Below are positions 49,940-63,900 of a stretch of 64,000 nt of DNA, in pieces; within the stretch, counting starts at the first letter, position 1, and each line of letters begins with the position of its first letter. The DNA lies in NCBI GenBank assembly GCA_010015805.1, contig ML978139.1, positions 248,001-312,000 of the forward strand, written 5' to 3'. The stretch is from Rhizodiscina lignyota (lineage: Eukaryota). The position numbers and the translations under genes are program-made. The notes beneath the pieces were generated by a model, which did no database searches, was not told where the DNA came from, and saw nothing but the letters and a program-made list of their open reading frames with translations.

Positions 49940-51271
49940 AAAGAGAGGAGTTCCAACTCAATTCCGTTTGTCTGGTCATGTCCTTTTATATGACTATCAT
50001 ATAGCTTTGGAGTTAAGGAGTTATAAAGTCAAATGATATATGGTCACCACATAAAGCTTGTGTCTAGGAGCATTTGAATATTCGTGATTCAAACTTACTG
50101 CGGTTCCGATTGTGATTTTCATGTTTGGTGCAAGTCATTTGCACTCGCTCATGTGAGTAATGTCTGAGACGATTGCGATTTTGCTTTCAAGACACCCATC
50201 CCACAGTCCTTTGTCTCAGGTCCGCCACTTATTAGTCGCATTCTGAATTACTCTCCATCCCTGTCTGCTCTCACAGTTCGCGCAATATTTCTTTTAAGAC
50301 CCTCAATGCCTCGTCACGGTATTTCTGGACACTTGTATCATCAGCTTCGTGCTGTTTCTTCGCCCGCTGCTCAGATACGTACATCAATAACGAGACCGAA
50401 ATTTAGCAATACAGAAGCAAGCTCTGTAATGTCTGTAAGGACTGTAGAGCTGGCTAGTCTGAAAACCATTGAGAGGAAGTCGGAAATTTCGACGGGGGTT
50501 TGTTGCCTTTGGCCTGCAGAATTTTCAACGGTTACCATGTTTTCTTGCCTTCAGCTTTCAAACAAAAATCCCGTCCAGGAAGGCAAAAGAAATAGTATTA
50601 TGACCAAATGACACCAAGAAGGGGAACAAAAGAGCAAAAAAACATACAACAGTTGGGATTCCCATGTGGTCTCCCAGCCATGGTACTAGCCAACCTCTTT
50701 GGAGCTTGAGTAAGGTCGATCGGACGAGAGGCCCTATTTTCCCCAAGATATGGTCGTATGTGCTGGGACATGTTTGAAATTCAAATATATAGCTTCACAC
50801 CCAAACGTCTACATTCAGCTCTCATCCGGCCACGTTGCTTTCATAGAATAATCACAGAGTGAGGTTACAATTCAGGTAGCAGTATGCTGTAAACAGCAGC
50901 GTTACCTCGTCCTGGCAAAGAAATCAAAACCACCTCAGAGAAGCGATTTATCGCCGATTTCACTATTCCAATGCGTGTGTAAATGCATCATACACTATAT
51001 AAAAATCAACAGAACATGCTAAACAAGTTGCGCTGATGGTGACGAATGGCATGGACTATGGATCAGAACGCTCTTCGACTTGGCCTTCTGGCAATTCTGT
51101 CTTCTTGTCGACAGGTACATAAGTACCGGCGATCAGGTGCCAAAGTACCTATATCTAAATGCATAAGTACCGGCAATTAGGTGCATGAGCCCCCGTTCGC
51201 ACAGGCGCTAATGTGCCCAACGACAAATACAGGGAACTTTCTAGTTGTACTCTGTTTACTCTCCAAAGGAT

Positions 51272-53263
51272 TCAAATCAGTGTGAATGTCTCTTCATTCA
51301 CCTTTCCTTCCCTCATCAACGTTATTGCTTCTCCATGCATCATGTGGAGGTAGCACTCCCCAATCATCAGATACTTTGAGTCTCCCAAAGGTCTCAGAAT
51401 GAACGGGACTTTTGCGCCAAAGATAACGCAGCAAACGTCTCCCTCTTCCAGTATCCAGGGTCCAAGCCCGAAGTAGCCGGAGTCAGTTATAAAGAACCGT
51501 CTGTTGAGGCATTTCAGGGCAGCATTGCCTAGAAATACCTCCGGCCTCACAGAAGTGCTTTCGGGATTTGATGAATTGATATCATTGCGATAAGATCCAG
51601 CAATATAAGCATCAAAAGAATCACATATTGCATCAAACTCTGTGTCGCCAGGTTCCAGGACGAGAGACGAGACTGTGTGGCGAAAGATCCAGTCACCGAT
51701 CAGCGTAAATACTAAGGCTCTCTTTACGTCTGCAACTTCATTCGAGTATGGGATCGGTTTGCTTTGGACTTGTTTCAATACGTCGTGATAAAGATCGGAA
51801 ACTGAGTACCCTTCTTTTCCCTTCGTTGTTTCAATGCGGTCCATATCTCCATAAGTGAAGAAGTTTGTTAAATCATCGAGTTGAGGCCTCCCCGTTTGCA
51901 CATGATCGAGTAGCACACCTCTAACAATAAGCTGTGTGCCATTCACCACGGTCAATTCGGGATGACGACCGTCAGATGCTTCAAAGCCAGCATGGAGGAT
52001 CTGCACTTTGTAAGACGGAGCCACGTCCCAGCGCGGACACCAGGAGGGGAACCTATCCTCTTCTAGATATTCTGGCCTGGTGGAATGTTCGAGTAAGGAT
52101 AATATGTCCAAGTCGAATTTTTGGTTGATCCAGGCTGCTACAAGGTCGATATACACAGTTGGAGCGGTTCGAGCATAATCAGGATCTATGCTGAAGTCCA
52201 ACAGTGGGTGATTTAAGAAGGCATATACTCTATCTCTTGCGTCGGATGACTTCAGCTCTCTAGATATTTGCAGGCACTGTATGAACTTTCTGGATCCCCA
52301 CAATCTGCCGTCGGAATCTCGCAGGCCACGGCCATCCAAATCGTATGAAACCCAAAGGTCGAATGTCCGGTCAAAGGAGAGCTGGTATTTATATGTTGTC
52401 AAAGCGCGCCCGCGATGGAATAGCCATTTGAAAACAGTCATCAGACTCCCCCAGTCTACTTCGGTGTTGCCGTAGAAGATTGTGGCTTGCCTGGCCAGAC
52501 CAACCTCTTGCCAGACCCAAGCCCGCCTGAACCATTCTTGTAGCGTGAGCTGAGAAAGAGCTTTCCAATTTAGATGATCGAGCGCTGCCATATCAGCGTC
52601 TGAGATGTGTGGAAGAGCGAACCATTCGCCATATCTTTCGAGCAATTCATTCACGTGTTGATGTAGACTATCTATAGCCTCCGCCGCTCCGCGAACTGTA
52701 TCTTCAGAATCATCCCCGAAAGAGATAAGTACTCTCTGTGCGATTTTGTAAATTTTACCCATGTTAGCGACTTGATGCCCTCGCTCTTTGACGTTCGATT
52801 GATCAATACGAATCGCATCACACCAGAGTATCTTATTCTCCGAGGAATCTCGTACTCGGCGCAGAGCCCATTCTAAATTCTTGGTGATTTGTAGCGGATG
52901 TCCGTTGATGTGAATCTTTTCACAAACATTCGGGTCTCCCCAGACGTAGGAGATGGCTTCATATCTCGGGTGTCGGCCGAGCCTTTCCAAGAAAAGTTCG
53001 CACTGAATCGGATCTTCCTCTGACCCATGGAGGAGTCGCAGAAGACGAAATGAGCCTTCATGGGGCAGAGAGTCGTATATCTCAGATTCCCTTGAACTTT
53101 CGTTGATGGGCTCCCCTCTCAGCATTGCTGCCTTCGCGACAGGCGACGCGCCAGCCGTTTCCATGAAAGATGCAAAATTAGATATCGGACCGTAACGACT
53201 GAGTGTCGTGATGCTTGAAGGCTTCATGTAAATATGAGATTCCTTGCTCAGACTTGCGGACAA
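51272..53263 (-). CDS. HET-domain heterokaryon incompatibility protein (HET-6-like); true ATG probably slightly internal
   Basis: FRLLRL, YEAISYVWG, LWCDAIRIDQ, ERGHQV..MGKIY..A, WFRRAWVWQE, SSDARDRVYA, PSWCPRW, RRFFITDSGYFGLGP, VPFILRP, IGECY. Confidence 0.92.
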   Translation of the reverse strand: MSASLSKESHIYMKPSSITTLSRYGPISNFASFMETAGASPVAKAAMLRGEPINESSRESEIYDSLPHEGSFRLLRLLHGSEEDPIQCELFLERLGRHPRYEAISYVWGDPNVCEKIHINGHPLQITKNLEWALRRVRDSSENKILWCDAIRIDQSNVKERGHQVANMGKIYKIAQRVLISFGDDSEDTVRGAAEAIDSLHQHVNELLERYGEWFALPHISDADMAALDHLNWKALSQLTLQEWFRRAWVWQEVGLARQATIFYGNTEVDWGSLMTVFKWLFHRGRALTTYKYQLSFDRTFDLWVSYDLDGRGLRDSDGRLWGSRKFIQCLQISRELKSSDARDRVYAFLNHPLLDFSIDPDYARTAPTVYIDLVAAWINQKFDLDILSLLEHSTRPEYLEEDRFPSWCPRWDVAPSYKVQILHAGFEASDGRHPELTVVNGTQLIVRGVLLDHVQTGRPQLDDLTNFFTYGDMDRIETTKGKEGYSVSDLYHDVLKQVQSKPIPYSNEVADVKRALVFTLIGDWIFRHTVSSLVLEPGDTEFDAICDSFDAYIAGSYRNDINSSNPESTSVRPEVFLGNAALKCLNRRFFITDSGYFGLGPWILEEGDVCCVIFGAKVPFILRPLGDSKYLMIGECYLHMMHGEAITLMREGKVNEETFTLI

Positions 53264-53789
53264 GGCTGTGAGTTTCCAATGAGTATCGTCGCGTTCGGTG
53301 GTGCTTCGTGAGAGTCGAAGGCTTCAAGCGAGATGAGTTAGATAAATGTCTCATATAGCTTGGCCATCAAAGTGGTTAAAGTCGACGTTGAATTCACGTG
53401 TCCTGTTGGTGTTAACATATATTCCGTGGGGAGTGCATAGCAAGGAAACTATGGAGTACAAAGGGCAAATATATAGCAGCTAAGCCTGAAATAGGAATAG
53501 CTCGTGTGCGTGGGGCGCCAAAGCGACAACGCTAATGAAATTGAAGTGCGTTATTAGCCAGTACATTGTAATTGGCAGGGATACCAGACAAACTACTGAA
53601 GCGGCTTCCAAAAGTCACTGACAATCTGTCTTCGCGGGGATAACTTTCGTAGTGCATCCTACGGGTTCGAACAGGCATCAACTGTAATTGTTACGGATCC
53701 TTCAGTCACATAAATGCATGAAATTATGGCAATCGTCGAAGAAAGACTTTGAATTGACTATCTACAAGTCACAGGTACTAGACTTGTCA

Positions 53790-54882
53790 GTCCTTCCCCA
53801 AAATTTAATGAGCGACTCCCACCACCAACTCGCATCGAACTCCATCGAGCCAGCCCCAGAAACGAGCTGTCTGCCGAAGCAAGACAGCATCCACAGATAG
53901 GGACCCCGGCCCACGATCCTAACGGAAGGGGATTCCTTGCAGCAGCCAAGCACAAACAACACATCCCATTCAACGCTCGTTATCAGTCAGCGGAACCGCC
54001 GCCGCTATTTTCCCCTGTAGCCCACATTGTGAGATACTGTCCGCGAACATCTTTCCCCCCACCACAGCCGGGTCCGAAGATACATGCGCAAGCAGGGTAG
54101 AAAGAAAGACGTGCGGCACAAAGGAAACAGCAAACGACGGTTGCGAATGAGCGATCATACCCAGTATGTCCGGCGGCACACTCCTGACGCCCAGCGGCTC
54201 TGGCCACAACATGACAGGCGGTCCGCGCGACTACAGGAGAAGACTCGACTGCAGCGGGACGGGCGGCGTGCGGATGAGCGAGAGCGGGTGAGTACCACGA
54301 GCGGCAGTGCGGGAAGAAAAGGGCAGGCGAGTACCGAGTCATACCAAGCGGATACCACAGAAACCCTCGTGTCAAACAATCAGATCCCCAGATTGAAGAA
54401 GAGGAAAGACATGAGGGGGGTATCAGGCAAACGCGCATATCAGATGCAGAAACAGCGACACATTTAATGACCACCTAATCAAGAAAATGAAAAGAAAGCA
54501 AAGCCAGAGGAAATGGGGATAGTATCTCGTTATCATATCGAGTTAAGCAACGAAAATTGAGAACTCCAAGTCGCTATGCAATGCAAAATCAGTTCAACAC
54601 CAGTTTCGTCGGAGAGGGTACGCAAGCGTGCCCTACAATCCGACGTCTCGTTATTTCATCCGGAGGCAAAGCCATCAACGGATGATGAGTGACCTCAGGG
54701 ACCAAGATTCGAACCTGAGCAATTACGACTCATCAAACAATCGCCTTTTCGCTCTTTAGATCCGATTTCCCGCAGGGTTGACTCAGACCTCACGCAGATG
54801 GGAGAGAAGGTCAGGTCTGTGGGAGGAGATCCTAAACATGTCTCACTCTCTCTGAAATTGGCTTTGTTAGAAGAGAGTGAAA
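53790..54882 (-). ncRNA. Candidate long structured RNA (identity unknown; telomerase-RNA-like layout or structured PRM1 3' UTR)
   Basis: Multiple nested helices that pair only on the minus strand via G-U pairs, cUUCGg hairpin at 53866-53888, Sm-like AAUUUUGG at the 3' end, no credible ORF. Confidence 0.45.
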
Positions 54883-54887
54883 GTATT

Positions 54888-57197
54888 TCATATCATGTTC
54901 GAACGATAATCGGCGAATGGATCACCGCCGCTTTTTTCGCTCACAATAGCACCGTGCATGCTTTTATGAGCCACATTGGCAGGCGGCGTGACAGTGCGGC
55001 TGTAGTTCCGCACGTCAATCGTACCCTTCTCGAGCGAGGCCTCCTCGCCAGAAGACGGGGGTACAGCGCGGGGGAAGGGGTGCGGATTCAAGGTATACGG
55101 CGCGTGAGGGTTGACATCGGAGGAAGCGTACTCATATGGTGGCGCGTCTGTCGCCTTTGGTTCATAGCTGCCGCCAAAGCCATTGTCGTGGGACTGGGGT
55201 AAGAATTCATTGCCACCTTCGCCGCGCATCTTATCGTGCTTGAGGAACAGATAAAGAGCGCGAACGAAGCCCATGAGTGCCACGAGGAGCCAGAAACAAA
55301 GGATGATGGTAGCAATGATGGCTTCTTGGCGGACAGCCGCCATGAGCAGGTGAACCAAATCGTCGACGGCTTCAGTAATCTCATCCGTGGTCGTGTCCTT
55401 TGGATCCGCGAGGAAGTTGTTGTCGGCTGTGCTGTTGGTGTGATCTACCAGGTTTTGGAGCGTGAAGGTGTTGTTTGGAAGCAGTGGGAAGTCGATGTGA
55501 GCATTGTCGTGCACCCACGTCAATCCCTGCTCAAAACTGGCAATCTTCAAGCCGATGAGACAATTGAAAACATCCTTAATCGGATCTGCGAGGATTGTCT
55601 TGCCAAAAGCATCGTCGAGCAGGGTGATCGTCTGGTTAACAAACTCATTGAGAGTATTGTTGACAGCAGTCGTGCTTGTGTTGACCCAGCCGAGCAAGTC
55701 CGTGTTAATCAGGTTGTTCTCCGTCAAGATCAGGTTGTTGGTACCATTTGCCCATTGCTGAGACGCGTTGTTGACGGTGTTAACAACCTTCTGGGAGAAA
55801 TCGCCAACCTGAGCAGCAAGATTGGGTGTCTCGTGCTTGATTGACGCAAGGAGAATGTATTGGCAAAGACATGCAAACAAACCGGCAAGTGCAAGAGCGA
55901 GCACAAAGAGAGCAGGGACTGATGTGCAGTATGCAACAGTCCAGCGGATCAGGAGCTGGTGGCGTTTTGTTGTTGCCTTGCTCGCCGCCCAGCTGCCAAC
56001 CTGCGATGTGTAAGGCCGAGAAGCCATGTAAACAGCGTCCATAGGATCGACGGCTTCTCTGCCAATGACTGCTGCTCGCTCTTGAAGACGTCGCCACCGC
56101 TGAATCTCCCACCAAGCCATAGGAATGCACACGAGAAATGCGGCGGTGAGAAGAACACCTAGAAAAACATTCCTGGCAATGTGGGAGATGTGGACAAGAT
56201 CGTCAAAGAAGTCGTTGATGCCATTATTGTCGGAGCAGAAAGTGAGGCTCTCCTTCTGCGGTACCGGGAGGAGAGTGCCATCAAACTGGTAGGTTCCCAT
56301 TGAGTCGTTGATGAGCTTCTTGAGCTCCTCGAATGGGAGACGGATTACGTCGTCGACTGCACTCTTGACTTGATCGAAAGTGGGAATCGACGCGTTCAGT
56401 TGCTGGATCTTTTGGTTGATGTCTGATGGCATTTGAATCGCTTTCAAGGCATTGACTTCTTTGGAGAGATTGATCTGAGGCGGCTTGCCAGAAACTGTTG
56501 GAATACCGGGAAGGACATCTAGGAATTTGTTGAGCGTATTTTGGAAGTCTGTGATGCCCGAGCCGATACCGTTTTCGACGCTTGACAGTGACTTGTTCAT
56601 AGCATCCGAAAATTCTTGAACAAGGTCCAGAGCCAAGTGCGCGCCACCACCTGCTGCGAGAGTGATCAGGCAGAGATATGTGTTTGTCATCATACCGATA
56701 ACAAAGACGACGATTTCTTCAACGCCCGTCACACTCATAGTGACCATTTGCATGAGTCCATTGACAGCATGTGTAACGCCCTCTGCAGTGAGCTTGTTGA
56801 CACCTTGCGACATGTAATGAGGCATGGATGCCATGGTGCTTCCGGCATCTTCGACACTGGTGCATGCCGAGAGTGCTTCTTTTCGAGCAGAAGCGATTCC
56901 GTTGTTCAAGCTGCCGACAGCTAGGAGAGTCCGCACGAGTACAAGAAGAAGGAGAATGGTCCATCGATTGATCCAAACTTGCGAGAGTCTAGCTCGAAGG
57001 CCGAGGTATGGTGTGAGGTATGGTGCTTGATTAGGTGGAGGTCGTGACGCATTCTGAAAGGCGTAGTAGTCTCGCATCTCATGGTCGCCAGCGGAAAGAG
57101 ATGGAGGTGCAGCTGGAAAGGGTTGCTGCCGGGTATCTGTGAACGACATGTCTGAGGAGCGGTGTCGAAACCGCTGAAGCCTATCCAGATAGCCCAT
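54888..57197 (-). CDS. PRM1: Plasma membrane fusion protein Prm1
   Basis: TPYLGLRARLSQVWINRWTILLLLVL, ACTSVE..GS.MASMPHY, TYLCL, FNCLIGLK, GLTWVHDNAHIDFP. Confidence 0.93.
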   Translation of the reverse strand: MGYLDRLQRFRHRSSDMSFTDTRQQPFPAAPPSLSAGDHEMRDYYAFQNASRPPPNQAPYLTPYLGLRARLSQVWINRWTILLLLVLVRTLLAVGSLNNGIASARKEALSACTSVEDAGSTMASMPHYMSQGVNKLTAEGVTHAVNGLMQMVTMSVTGVEEIVVFVIGMMTNTYLCLITLAAGGGAHLALDLVQEFSDAMNKSLSSVENGIGSGITDFQNTLNKFLDVLPGIPTVSGKPPQINLSKEVNALKAIQMPSDINQKIQQLNASIPTFDQVKSAVDDVIRLPFEELKKLINDSMGTYQFDGTLLPVPQKESLTFCSDNNGINDFFDDLVHISHIARNVFLGVLLTAAFLVCIPMAWWEIQRWRRLQERAAVIGREAVDPMDAVYMASRPYTSQVGSWAASKATTKRHQLLIRWTVAYCTSVPALFVLALALAGLFACLCQYILLASIKHETPNLAAQVGDFSQKVVNTVNNASQQWANGTNNLILTENNLINTDLLGWVNTSTTAVNNTLNEFVNQTITLLDDAFGKTILADPIKDVFNCLIGLKIASFEQGLTWVHDNAHIDFPLLPNNTFTLQNLVDHTNSTADNNFLADPKDTTTDEITEAVDDLVHLLMAAVRQEAIIATIILCFWLLVALMGFVRALYLFLKHDKMRGEGGNEFLPQSHDNGFGGSYEPKATDAPPYEYASSDVNPHAPYTLNPHPFPRAVPPSSGEEASLEKGTIDVRNYSRTVTPPANVAHKSMHGAIVSEKSGGDPFADYRSNMI

Positions 57198-58326
57198 TTA
57201 GTGAGTGCCAACCAGCAGCAACGGAGGAATTGAAGGGGTGGAAAGTGGAGGAGTTGCCGTAAGCTTGAGATGTTGGAAACGTCAAGCCTCGAAAGAGAGA
57301 AGTGGCGTTTAATTTGTGGTTGGGGTATTGTGGTGAAGAAAAATGAACAATAGAAATTAGATGGCTATTGACGGCAACGTGATATTAGAGCAACACAAAA
57401 TCACGGTGAATAAGACAGCGATCAACGCTACAAAGGAAACTCGTGATACATAAAAAGCAAAGGGTGAGCACGCTTAGAAAAGGGAAAAGAGGCAGGGCGG
57501 GAAAACAATGCAGTTAGACAAAGGCGGGTGTTGAAGATATTCATTCACGAAAAAGCCAAGAAGCACGTACCTGATCAGCGAACATGACCCATCGGGCGAC
57601 CGGGTGTCCTAGTGATTGACATTGAAACATTCGGTCGCTGGCTCCAAGCGTTTCGCGAGGCCTCCGCTCTCTCAGACCTGACTCTATTCTGAGGCTGGAG
57701 TGGCCGCGGCGCCACGATACGCGCCCACACGGCCGCGGAACGGGCAAACGGCGGCCACTCGTTTGAGAGTTCGATAGCTGGCCTACGGAAGACCCGAACT
57801 CAGTGGAGAACCAGTCGAGCTTCGCAGCGGCCCTGACAGAGGCATCATGAATGCGCTTCTGTGAGCAAACTGGGTTGTTTGGCCTCGACTGGCTCTCCAG
57901 GGCTTGCAAACTTTGCGACCGGACGAGCGCGTCGCACTGCAGCGGCTGTGAGGCTCAGGAGAGCTCAAACACGGCCGGCAGTGCAGGCGCACGTGGTGTT
58001 TAAAGTCGCAACAGCTTGGCAAGGGAACGGCTTCAGGTGTTCATCGTTGAAGTCGCTCGCATTGAGAAGGGATGGAGGCGTGGCGACCTTTTAAATGACG
58101 ATCTCGTCGCGGAGGCAGGGCAGCTGTGGCGTCAACGCCACCCCGCCGAGCTTATTTCCACTCCACGCCACACGTCGTTGCTCTCTGCAATTCAAGATAC
58201 TGCTACGTCTTCTTCTTCGGAGGAGTGTTTTGGCTCTTTTCGACACATTACAACACGCTATTTTGAGACCGTCTTTGTTGTTTCCTCAAAGTCTGAGATA
58301 GCTCAATTTCGGCTTCAAAGCAGCCT

Positions 58327-58377
58327 TTGATTGGCTACCGCCTAGCGCGTAGAGGCCGCAGCCCTACGGCCAATCAA
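58327..58377. promoter_or_regulatory. Inverted pair of CCAAT boxes in the PRM1/APS3 divergent intergenic region
   Basis: TTGATTGGC at 58327-58335 and its exact reverse complement GCCAATCAA at 58369-58377. Confidence 0.45.
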
Positions 58378-58801
58378 GCGGCCTTGGGCCGGCCAGGCGA
58401 AACACGCAAGATTACGTCAGGGCTCAAGCAAGTTTCACGGGTTTCCAGAAAATGCCATTGTCGCGAATCAGACGGAACGAATGCGATTGTCTTCCATGAC
58501 GACGGAGATCGATCCCCCTTCACGTGTTCGAATGCCAATGAGAGGCTGTTGCGATCGCAACAGGATGAAATTGGCCTTCGTGAGAAATATCTCCAACTTA
58601 CTATGCTTTGTATATGGCTCCAATGTCCTCTCGCTCCTCCGTAGGAAACGACTTGAAGGGCAGATAGAATGCCACGTGCTGTGGCTCAGCATCCCGCGCA
58701 CGTGAAGTCGCGATGTGCGGAATTTCCCCGCTTCAGCCACAACCACCAGTGACGGCACACTGAGTTCTGTTTACAGCTCCTCTTTGGAGTAAAATATCAC
58801 G

Positions 58802-59485
58802 ATGATCAACGCAGTTCTAGTCTTCAATAATTCAGGCCAGCCGCGCCTCACAAAGTTCTACACGCAGCTCGTGAGCTCTAGTGAGCCGCATGGCGCATAT
58901 CCATTCTAACTGTGTCACAGGACACAAGCGTTCAGCAACGCTTAATATCCGAGATATTCACCCTCGTGGCCAACCGACCGAATTCGTCATGTAATTTCCT
59001 CCCGTATGTCCGCCATATGTGTCCTCACCCATGGTCTCTACTGACCATCACGCAGACTTCCGCCTCTCCTCGCGCCTCCATCATCCTCTGCTTCCACGGC
59101 CAACTCCCAGCACAATGATACCCCTTCACTAGTAACCTACCGGCACTATGCAACGCTGTACTTTATCATAATCTCCACCTCCACTGAATCACCGCTCGCG
59201 CTACTTGACCTCATCCAAGTCTTCGTGGAAGCATTGGACAGATTGTTCGAAAATGTCTGCGAACTTGACCTCATCTTCAACTTCGAGACACTGCATGCTA
59301 CACTGGGCGAGATGATTGTAGGCGGAGTTGTGGTGGAAACAGGGTTAGATAAGGTCGTTGAAGGAGTACGGCAGCAGGGTAGAGTTGCGAAGAGGCCGGT
59401 CAATGAGAGCGGTGGCGGTCTGGGACGAGGGTTTGCAGGGTTTGGCGGATTGGGGAGAGGAGAAGTTGTATGGACTGGGAGATGA
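58802..59485 (+). CDS. APS3: AP-3 adaptor complex sigma subunit
   Basis: MINAVLVFNNSGQPRLTKFY, CNFL, YRHYATLYF, LIQVFVEALDRLFENVCELDLIF; introns 58871-58920 and 59004-59055. Confidence 0.92.
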
Positions 59486-60179: not shown

Positions 60180-60712
60180 TCAACGTTGTGCCTCGTGTCG
60201 AGATTGTGAGATTGATTGCTCTTCGGCAATGGTAGGGGCGTTGTGAGTGCTGTGCGTCCAGAGCGAGTCGGCCATCCGCTTGTACGCATCTCGAATCTAT
60301 TGGACTGTGAGCGATGAACACCATAACCAGCGCAATCATGACATACGCTCTTGAAAGGAGGATCACGCTTCTCTGCTGGCCCTTTCAAGCCGGCCCCTTC
60401 ACTGAAGTCCATGAACAAGACTCCATAGCCAAGTACAACTACGCCTTGTCAGCCATTGACGGAGGTAATGCTTTCATCCTCCATACAAACTATTGCTCCC
60501 CACTGTGCCAGCTTTACGCCCTTTGTCCATGTCGGTCGCGCCCATTTCAGTTTCGACCTTCGTCGGTATCTTCGCTCGAGCCGGAACTGGTGCTTGTGGG
60601 AGAGTTTGTCGAAGTCGGGTGGCCACGTCTTCTTCGCTTTGTAGGGGTTGTTCTCAAAGTCGAATAGAGATTTGCCGGACTCGGCAGCACGTCTAATTAG
60701 GGTTGGTAGCAT
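60180..60712 (-). CDS. Small basic single-TM protein, probably mitochondrial; unknown function
   Basis: MLPTLIRRAA..., NPYKAKKTWPPDF..LSHKHQFRLERRYRRR; two introns give ...VLFMDF...PFKS/IRDAYKR...EAQR*. Confidence 0.7.
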
Positions 60713-60905: not shown

Positions 60906-63900
60906 AACCTTCAACCTACTCCGAGCGACATTTAAACCATCTTCCCTTCGATTTGCGTGCCTGGGCCGCAGTTACACCCGCAATTTCACGAATACCGCCA
61001 GGTCTGCGGACATCTTCACCATGGCAGCTCAAGACGTCCTCGATCCTTCGAATGGCTCGAAGAACACGATGAAGATAGAGAATACCGAGAAGCGCGATAC
61101 CCTTATAGACATCGAGAAGAAATACCAGAAGAAGTGGGCAGACGACCATGTCTTCGAAATCGATGCGCCGACGACCGCAGAATTCCCCTTCGACTCGATA
61201 ACGCCGGCGGAGCTCCACCAAAAATTCCCTAAACAGATGGTCAACTTCGCCTTCCCGTACATGAACGGCTCTCTGCATGCTGGCCATGCATTCACATCGA
61301 GCAAAATGGAGTTTGCGACAGGCTTTGCGAGAATGGAGGGCAAGCGAGCTCTTTTCCCCCTCGGATACCACTGTACGGGCATGCCGATCAAGGCATGCGC
61401 AGACAAGCTCATTCGCGAAGTCGAAATGTTCGGTAAAAACTTCGAAGGATATGCGGAGGAGGAGCTCGCGAACGGCGATGCCAATCCCACGCCAGCCCCA
61501 ACGCAGGACACCAAGGCTGATATCACGAAACATGTGACGAAGAAGAGCAAGGCAGTCGCGAAGACGGGAAAGATGAAGTACCAGTTCCAGATCATGCAAG
61601 CGCAGGGAGTGCCGGTCGAAGAGATCCACAAGTTTTGCGACACTGATCACTGGCTCCAATATTACCCGCCAATATGCCAAAGAGACATGACGAGCATTGG
61701 CGCGAGGATAGATTGGAGAAGGTCGTTCGTTACTACGGATGCGAATCCCTACTTTGACTCATTCGTCAGGTGGCAGATGAGAAAACTCAAGGAACTTGGC
61801 AAGATAAAGTAGGTGTTATTCAGCCCCGCTACGATGATGAGACACTGACTTTGATATCCAGATTTGGCAAGCGATACACTGTATACAGCCCCAAAGATGG
61901 CCAACCATGTCTTGATCACGACCGGTCTGCTGGAGAGGGAGTAGGCGTGCAAGAATACACAGCACTCAAGCTCAAGGTAAAAGAGTGGCCTGAGGCTGCA
62001 CAGAAACTTCTCTCCGGCAAGCTTCCAAGCTCCGCAAACGTCTATTTTGTTCCCGCAACTCTTCGACCAGAGACCATGTATGGTCAAACCTGCTGCTTTG
62101 TAGGCCCAAATATCACATACGGCATCTTCAAAGTAACCGACGACGAATACTACTTCTGCTCCGACCGTGCCGCCAGGAATATGGCATTTCAGAGTGTCTT
62201 CCCGGAATGGGGCGTATTCCCGAAGGTTGCGGAGTTACAAGGCTCAGATGTCGTGGGCACACTTGTAAATGCTCCTCTCTCTGTTCACAAAGAGGTGCGC
62301 ATTCTCCCCATGGAGACTGTCAAAGCGACAAAAGGCACAGGCGTTGTCACCAGTGTGCCGTCCGACAGCCCCGACGACTACGCGACAGTAATGGATCTTG
62401 CGAAGAAAGCTGAATATTACGGAATCAAGAAGGAGTGGGCAGAGCTTGAAATAATACCGATCATCGAGACACCAAAATATGGCAATCTCACCGCGGCCAC
62501 ACTTGTCAAACAATTGAAGATCCAGTCTCCAAAAGATGCAAAGCCACTTGCAGAAGCAAAGGACGAAGCGTACAAGGAAGGATTCTACAATGGCAAGATG
62601 ATATATGGCGAGTTCAAGGGTAAACCGGTCTCAGAGGCGAAGAATCTCGTGAGAAAAAGCTTGATTGACGCAGGCGACGCTTTCAATTATGCTGAACCTG
62701 ATGGTTTGGTAATCAGCAGAAGTGGTGACGACTGCGTTGCTGCCCATCTCGATCAGTGGTTCCTCAACTACGGAACATCAGCGAATGGTGGAGATGGTGA
62801 ATGGTGCGAAGAAGTCTTCAAACATCTCGAAAGTGGCAACATCAACATGTTCTCATCGGAGACCAAGCATCAGTTTGAACAAGTCCTCGGCTGGCTCGCA
62901 CAATGGGCATGTGCCAGATCGTACGGCCTAGGTACGAAGTTGCCATGGGACGAAGCTTTCCTCGTCGAGTCTCTTTCGGACAGCACCATATACCCCTCAT
63001 ATTACACTATTTCACACTATCTCCACTCTGACATATTTGGGACGAAGCCTGGCAAGTTCGACATTAAGCCATCGCAGATGACGGACGAAGTATGGGATTA
63101 CCTCTACTGCAGAAGGGACACTGTGAATTGCGACATTCCAATAGACCAGTTGCAGACGATGAAACGGGAATTCCAATACTTCTATCCAAACGACATGCGT
63201 GGTAGCGGGAAGGATCTCATTCAGAATCATCTTACTTTCTACCTCTACATCCACGTTGCTCTCTTCCCGAAGGAATACTGGCCACGCGGCATACGGGCAA
63301 ACGGTCACCTCTTGCTCAATGGTGAGAAGATGGCCAAGAGCACAGGCAACTTCCTCACTTTGTCTGGCGCGGTTGAGAAGTTTGGCGCTGACGCTACTCG
63401 AATTGCTCTCGCAGATGCCGGCGATGGCATCGATGATGCAAATTTTGAAGAGACCTCTGCTAATGCCGCTATCCTCCGCTTGCACACGTTGAAGGAATGG
63501 TGCGAGGAGATGATCCATGACGCACGTCTTGTCCAATCACCAGAGGAATTCGCGAAACTGCGAGACGCGGAGAAGATGAAGAATACGGATGTCATTCAGC
63601 GCACCGGCCCGAAGAACTTCTGGGACGAGCTCTTCGAGAACGAGTTGAATGGATTGGTGAAGGAGACATTCGACAACTACAGCTCGACGTCGTACAAAGC
63701 CGCGCTTAAAACTGGCTTCTATGACTTTTTACTTGCACGAGACTCCTGGCGAAGTGCCACTGCTGGTGCAAGTGTCGGCATGCACCATGATCTCGTCAAG
63801 CGGTATATCGAGCTCCAGGCTCTGATGCTCGCGCCTATTGCACCGCACTGGGCTGAATACATTTGGCTCGAGGTGCTCAAGAAGCCATCTACAATACAGA

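Follow-up and report, generated by a model that had tools for sequence, protein, structure and literature searches.

Behind the PRM1 gene, in the 64-kb window (the whole stretch of DNA analysed, 64,000 nucleotides), probably lies a non-coding element that is both conserved and transcribed, rather than a telomerase RNA. The core of this element, some 600 bases that carry the conserved short blocks, extends from ~54340 to ~53740 and probably belongs either to a non-coding RNA that has no name yet or to the long 3′ tail of the gene. We would class it with the conserved non-coding transcripts and UTR elements that are restricted to one lineage. The first-pass annotation of this DNA had described the interval between PRM1 and the next gene as a candidate structured, strand-specific RNA and had listed a number of features on which this reading was based. 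The listed features are indeed present; exceptional folding with strand-specific selection was not found. The broader idea in that annotation, namely that the DNA behind PRM1 gives rise to a non-coding RNA or 3′ UTR with a function, gained from two observations: the conserved blocks shared with a distant relative, and the RNA contigs over 53742-54015.

Genomic setting of the element

The PRM1 coding sequence (54888 to 57197, minus strand), which lies outside the element and provides its context, is a 769-aa ORF. Its product is 99% identical to a Rhizodiscina lignyota protein (NCBI), and its UniRef name is plasma membrane fusion protein PRM1. The search returned 1,470 homologues (E ≤ 0.001), the closest of which after the 99% match had 85%, 71% and then 59% identity. 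On the other side of the interval there is an ORF with a HET domain (51272-53227, minus strand). A 5S rRNA gene at 50641-50761 was the only Rfam match at the gathering threshold in the whole 64-kb window, and a tRNA scan of 50000-58000 detected no tRNA genes.

Conserved blocks shared with a distant relative

The distant relative is a 1,022-nt metagenome contig, here called L001, which was found via a 20-mer common to all three RNA-library contigs described below. This exact 20-mer, located in block 5, occurred once in metagenome contigs, and the search for further relatives in prokaryote genome contigs yielded 0. Along a single strand, L001 follows the order of the window over 54341-53881. Its two BLAST HSPs against the 64-kb window (E 3.9e-10 and 3e-5) are collinear, and there was no other match in the window.

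Six blocks are shared, all given here for the minus strand. Block 1 (54330 to 54341) is identical to L001 at 11/12 positions, block 2 (54148 to 54174) at 25/27, corresponding to the HSP with 92.6% identity and E 3e-5, and block 3 (54069 to 54084) at 15/16. Block 4 (53973 to 53984; 11/12 identical) holds the third copy of the GATA-like AUAACGAG. Block 5 (53910 to 53947), with 34/38 identical positions, a 25-nt identical run and the HSP with E 3.9e-10, is followed by block 6 (53881 to 53891; 10/11), which is the 5′ arm of the cUUCGg hairpin of the window; as judged by reading, the letters of block 6 form no equivalent hairpin in L001. In total, 125 block columns (118 of them assigned to the six blocks; a seventh block, the 9-column T-run at 54493-54485 in the spacer, has 8/9 identical) were 91% identical between the window and L001, compared with 43% for the other 726 aligned columns. 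This difference shows that L001 is distant and that the blocks are constrained.

The surroundings of the blocks in L001 have a layout of their own. Just upstream of block 1 L001 has GGATATATG, just downstream a C+T-rich tract, and at the relative position of the A+U-rich spacer of the window an A+T-rich stretch. We take this succession of A+T-rich stretch, GGATATATG and C+T-rich tract to resemble a terminator followed by the layout of a filamentous-fungal promoter. An ORF starts in L001 ~130 nt beyond the element on the same strand, and no counterpart of this ORF was found within the window. Given this position, a promoter or 5′-leader role of the element is possible in L001.

RNA library coverage

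Three contigs of a soil RNA library cover 53742 to 54015; the contigs do not give the strand. One of them (79 nt) is identical to the window, the second (111 nt) has 3 differences, and the third (193 nt) has 18 differences and 4 single-base indels, so that two or three genotypes (100%, 97% and 89% identity) are represented. Within the 7,001 bases compared (51000-58000), only 53742-54015 was covered by RNA contigs at high identity, and no contig at ≥95% matched the rest. The surrounding 6.7 kb of the close genotype, with its HET gene, its spacer and its PRM1 coding sequence, was thus uncovered. Three other contigs of the library match PRM1 over just 35-41 nt (~90%) and then diverge, indicating that they come from distant homologues.

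The library holds 7% of the sampled words at a depth of ~5, and since the RNA run was picked through words of this interval, the coverage within the interval is partly a matter of selection; the part of the interval with no RNA contigs (54016-54887) is uninformative either way. A second sequencing run matches the DNA almost exactly throughout and may be its source, so it is not independent. DNA contamination also would not yield this confined coverage pattern.

Elements read from the sequence

The features reported in the first-pass annotation were recovered on the minus strand. A 12-bp hairpin (54882-54841) adjoins the PRM1 stop codon, outside the stretch alignable with L001, and a cUUCGg hairpin is located at 53891-53864; these two hairpins were post hoc choices, with z -3.44 (-14.3 kcal/mol; 1/200 shuffles as good) for the former and z -3.14 (2/200 shuffles as good) for the latter. 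L001 lacks the cUUCGg hairpin, and in the relative with 89% identity its loop reads UUCU. The 12-nt inverted repeat proposed to close a ‘~500-nt arm’ is present as well (54031-54042 and 54517-54528), and the letters of this closing helix fall into a gap of L001. The Sm-like site AAUUUUGG (53805-53798) overlaps an AUUAAA (53809-53804) and is followed by ACUGAC (53791-53786) and a 7-bp hairpin (53790-53762). It is kept in the 89% relative, where U replaces G at 53799 and the site becomes AAUUUUUG.

An A+U-rich spacer (54450 to 54610, minus strand) separates the PRM1-proximal part of the interval from the core. It holds the U-rich tract (54505-54481) and a further AUUAAA (54468-54463), and its GC content is 0.45 vs 0.61 for the core. 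The spacer is a candidate poly(A) region of PRM1.

Possible identity of the element

Our working interpretation, which we put forward tentatively, is that the element may be an independent Pol II transcript of ~0.55 kb on the strand of PRM1, with the unstructured blocks as putative binding sites. An A+U-rich spacer with AUUAAA followed by a G+C-rich, pyrimidine-rich core supports an independent unit. Such a transcript would begin in the C+U-rich tract that follows block 1 and stop soon after the AUUAAA/U-run at 53809-53798, and the first ~430 nt past the PRM1 stop codon would be an ordinary PRM1 3′ UTR. The conserved blocks would be single-stranded and bind proteins or other nucleic acids. The strand and the ends of this transcript, its separateness from PRM1 and the role of the blocks as binding sites are inferences. 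A more specific proposal, which we regard as unlikely, is that the element belongs to an undescribed conserved ncRNA family of Dothideomycete-like fungi, transcribed independently downstream of PRM1 and ~0.55 kb in length. Its near-invariant blocks (27-38 nt) would be unstructured, an Sm-type U-run would lie close to the 3′ end, and the RNA would serve as an RNP scaffold or guide.

The element shares with fungal lncRNAs and sequence-conserved RNP scaffolds a Pol II-like context, the absence of an ORF, transcription and patchy conservation. To our knowledge, almost no ncRNAs have been described in this fungal class beyond the housekeeping set; if the element is a discrete RNA, it would represent a new lineage-specific ncRNA family. 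A literature search with the block strings gave no relevant paper among the matches listed; one match was a chance 12-mer in a Dictyostelium paper.

It is also possible, though somewhat less likely, that the whole interval is a single, unusually long PRM1 3′ UTR of ~1.15 kb in which the blocks would govern how stable the mRNA of the fusion protein is, how it is translated or where it is localised. The orientation would fit, no promoter is demonstrated between PRM1 and the blocks, and the position of the RNA contigs at the extreme 3′ end (53742-54015) is what a 3′-biased cDNA library would give. Fungal 3′ UTRs are usually far below 1.1 kb, however, and the A+U-rich tract with AUUAAA at 54468-54463 resembles an earlier poly(A) region. 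Moreover, the PRM1 coding sequence of a close genotype is missing from the same RNA run. Among the best 120 of the 1,470 PRM1 homologues, the contig measures 3.6-4.3 kb in 24 cases and 4.3-4.9 kb in just 3. Since the coding sequence is ~2.2 kb, this accumulation could reflect PRM1 transcripts ~4 kb long, 1.5-2 kb of them untranslated, and would favour a long 3′ UTR; but contig sizes cannot separate a 5′ from a 3′ UTR, and a mode of ~3.7 kb is also expected of random genomic contigs that contain a 2.2-kb gene.

Conserved 3′ UTR elements are known from Pezizomycotina (PMC8216456); PRM1 has 0 occurrences among the 17 structures described there. These structures (Gao, Jones and Rivas 2021, PMC8216456) are similar to the element behind PRM1 in being lineage-restricted non-coding elements beside or inside mRNAs of filamentous ascomycetes. 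In contrast to the PRM1 element, they were defined by significant covariation, whereas here the covariation was matched by column shuffles and the best blocks are unstructured. If the element is part of the PRM1 3′ UTR, it would suggest that cell fusion, between hyphae or in mating, is regulated after transcription.

Considerably less probable is a role of the blocks as DNA, that is, as transcription-factor sites or a chromatin element, with the RNA resulting from incidental read-through. The blocks are unstructured, three GATA-like AUAACGAG copies are present (54654-54647, 54533-54526 and 53983-53976), and in L001 an ORF begins ~130 nt past the element, all of which would suit such a role. 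However, transcription-factor sites are usually shorter than the 27 and 38 nt of blocks 2 and 5, the genes downstream are unlike (HET in the window, an unrelated ORF in L001), and no RNA contig covers sequence outside the element at high identity.

Folding energy and strand asymmetry

The minus strand of the interval had been proposed to fold into a near-continuous series of helices. Folding of the complete 1,206 nt gave -412 kcal/mol, compared with -398 ± 11 kcal/mol for 30 dinucleotide shuffles (z -1.3), i.e. no better than chance. The plus strand of the same 1,206 nt behaved similarly (-360 vs -344 ± 9 kcal/mol for shuffles, z -1.6). In 150-nt windows along the minus strand (starts 53700-54750), z ranged from -2.20 to +2.31 with a mean of about -0.3, the background, from 44 windows drawn at random from the remaining sequence of the 64 kb, being -0.02 ± 1.12. 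L001 folded like its shuffles (mean z -0.49), and the conserved blocks 2 and 5 even folded worse than theirs (z +1.19 and +1.67).

The strand had been deduced from the many pairs that are G-U on the minus strand and would be A-C mismatches on the plus strand. This argument did not hold: the advantage of 50 kcal/mol for the minus strand recurs in the shuffles. Therefore, the asymmetry results from base composition and is neither a sign of selection nor a strand marker. The general lesson is that composition alone yields both helix-rich MFE drawings and a G-U strand asymmetry.

RNAalifold predicted 59 pairs for the window and L001, 14 of them with changes on both sides, from two sequences and thus with little power. 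Column-shuffled alignments of the two sequences had 10.2 such double changes on average and reached at least 14 in 18 of 150 cases, and the consensus energy of the native pair (-38.6) was close to the column-shuffle mean (-40.5, z +0.42). Since two sequences could not reliably reveal a conserved structure, these values speak only weakly for an absence of structure. As far as the data go, the constraint is on the sequence rather than on helices. Some of the double-change pairs looked convincing by eye; column shuffles matched them.

Comparison with telomerase RNA and other Sm-class RNAs

The first-pass annotation had proposed that the interval may encode a telomerase RNA or a different RNA of the Sm class; it could be released from the mRNA of PRM1, on the model of Ustilago maydis. 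We consider this very improbable, as there is no template, no Rfam match, no AUAAGU-type 5′ splice site and no thermodynamic or covariation signal. Attractive as it was in view of the Ustilago case, the claim that a cell-fusion gene conceals a telomerase RNA at its back can be set aside.

According to published descriptions, the telomerase RNAs of Aspergillus and Neurospora possess a CCCUAA template, a pseudoknot and a three-way junction (PMC3603654, PMC3592445), and their P6.1 has 4 bp and a NUNGN loop (PMC3592445). [quoted passage not shown] Several observations could be read in favour of such an RNA. Conserved blocks amid unalignable sequence are the pattern of fungal telomerase RNAs (PMC3592445), and the Sm-like AAUUUUGG is flanked by hairpins, its counterpart in the 89% relative being AAUUUUUG. 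On paper, block 2 allows a stem of 4 bp closed by the 5-nt loop YUGGG, in keeping with the NUNGN rule of P6.1. Finally, the production of a telomerase RNA from an mRNA has a precedent (PMC9564094).

These points are opposed by the lack of a template. CCCTAA/TTAGGG is absent from both strands between 2,503 and 60,697, a TTAGGG telomere being assumed from relatives, and the 64-kb window has three such sites in total (2503, 60697 and 61227). AACCCTAA, with its only exact occurrence at 60697 (minus strand), was rejected as a template because it lies in a coding start, and AGCCCUAACG at 2503 because it is an isolated CCCUAAC with no repeated alignment part; the site at 61227 is, by reading, in a coding region. 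A scan with one mismatch allowed found only AACGCTAA at 53528 (plus strand), just beyond the interval. The U-rich tract at 54505-54481 has no template next to it that could anchor a pseudoknot, and the ~540 nt between the PRM1 stop codon and block 1 are cramped for a template-pseudoknot core.

The 5′ splice site motif [AG]UA[AC]GU is absent over 53200-55000 on both strands. AGAG-NUNGN-CUCU, the P6.1 motif searched for, is absent within 53000-55000 with one mismatch allowed. When block 2 was treated as CAUA-YUGGG-UAUG, other pairings were preferred on folding (z as above), and no P6 next to block 2 was conserved in L001. The Sm-like site and the cUUCGg hairpin were not alignable in L001.

Rfam includes an ascomycete telomerase RNA model; no Rfam 15 family matched at E ≤ 1 over 52500-56000. 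At E ≤ 10, only chance lncRNA rows (E 1.8-8.1) appeared over 53700-54420, and the Rfam search of L001 gave nothing relevant. The Sm-class snRNAs U1, U2, U4 and U5 had no Rfam match either, with the Sm-like site not alignable in L001 as noted. Motifs of C/D and H/ACA snoRNAs, RNase P/MRP, SRP and U6-like RNAs were sought by eye, and none was common to the window and L001. The literature on ‘telomerase RNA’ in Dothideomycetes yielded nothing relevant.

Compared with the Pezizomycotina telomerase RNAs of Aspergillus and Neurospora, as described in PMC3603654, PMC3592445 and PMC4299874, the element is alike in being a long intergenic non-coding stretch with short blocks in unalignable sequence and with a purine-flanked U-run near the presumed 3′ end. 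In contrast to these RNAs, it has no CCCUAA template, no arrangement of AUAAGU and branch point, no Rfam match and no supported pseudoknot, P6 or P6.1, and the room upstream of its blocks is too small. The telomerase RNA of Ustilago maydis, processed from a protein-coding mRNA (PMC9564094), is similar in that a non-coding element directly follows a coding gene, possibly on the same strand. It differs in that the telomerase hallmarks are absent here.

Coding capacity

The assertion that the interval contains no credible ORF proved correct. Its long ORFs (53986-54474 on the minus strand, 54033-54464 on the plus strand) have no homologue at E ≤ 10, no Pfam family was found for ORFs on either strand, and the reading frames are not kept in L001. 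A small unannotated protein gene on either strand, for which minus-strand ORFs of 151-163 aa, plus-strand ORFs of 127-144 aa and the purine richness of the plus strand could be adduced, is hardly credible in view of these results and of the four single-base indels over 193 nt in the 89% relative. A pheromone precursor was rejected as a candidate, since no small CaaX-ended ORF is common to the window and L001.

The lengths of the gaps between the blocks are not divisible by three, and indels break every reading frame, so that the same block sits in different frames in the two sequences. Translated matches between L001 and the window occurred in several frames and on both strands, and were confined to the blocks.

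Possible extent of the PRM1 transcript and its flanking regions

Among the matches listed, contigs of 2.5-4.9 kb carried 47 of the 120 PRM1 homologues, and these 47 were unevenly distributed in size: 24 lay on contigs of 3.6-4.3 kb, whereas only 3 lay on contigs of 4.3-4.9 kb. This clustering may stem from contigs that represent PRM1 transcripts in full length, about 4 kb long with a coding sequence of 2.2 kb. Upstream of PRM1, no long ORF was found in about 1.6 kb (57198-58800), and an ORF beyond it, at 59045-59485 on the plus strand, resembles, purely on our inspection, an adaptor-complex small subunit. Therefore, PRM1 may have a long 5' leader as well, or a large promoter region may be shared here.

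The downstream side was compared with L001, a metagenome contig from a distant relative that is collinear with 54341-53881. About 130 nt past the conserved element, on the same strand, L001 carries the start of an ORF (MTDLITLFNDGIEFLIGQ...; L001 129-1, minus orientation). As no homologue of this ORF was detected across the 64-kb window, the element is followed by a different neighbour in each of the two organisms. The HET gene that neighbours the interval in R. lignyota has a dispersed 5S rRNA gene just downstream (50641-50761, minus strand; 73.3 bits, E 1.3e-13).

Candidate template, small ORF and repeated words

The first-pass annotation had raised a telomerase RNA as one possibility for the interval. 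The sole exact AACCCTAA of the window was rejected as a telomerase template, because it falls in the opening codons of an ORF (MLPTLIRRAAE..., from 60712 downwards on the minus strand). Within the interval, a very hydrophobic 37-codon ORF with a CaaX-like end, CAFA (54536-54423, minus strand), is not matched by any counterpart in L001. It probably arose by chance in a U-rich tract.

The 8-mer AUAACGAG occurs three times in the interval on the minus strand (54654-54647, 54533-54526 and 53983-53976), the third copy being included in conserved block 4, one of six stretches alike in the window and L001; a rough estimate puts at ~0.07 the probability that 1.2 kb of sequence holds three copies of any 8-mer. 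There is also a 13-nt direct repeat (54142-54154 and 54269-54281; 12/13 matches), which reads UCGCUCAUYCGCA on the minus strand, and one of its copies forms the 3' portion of conserved block 2.
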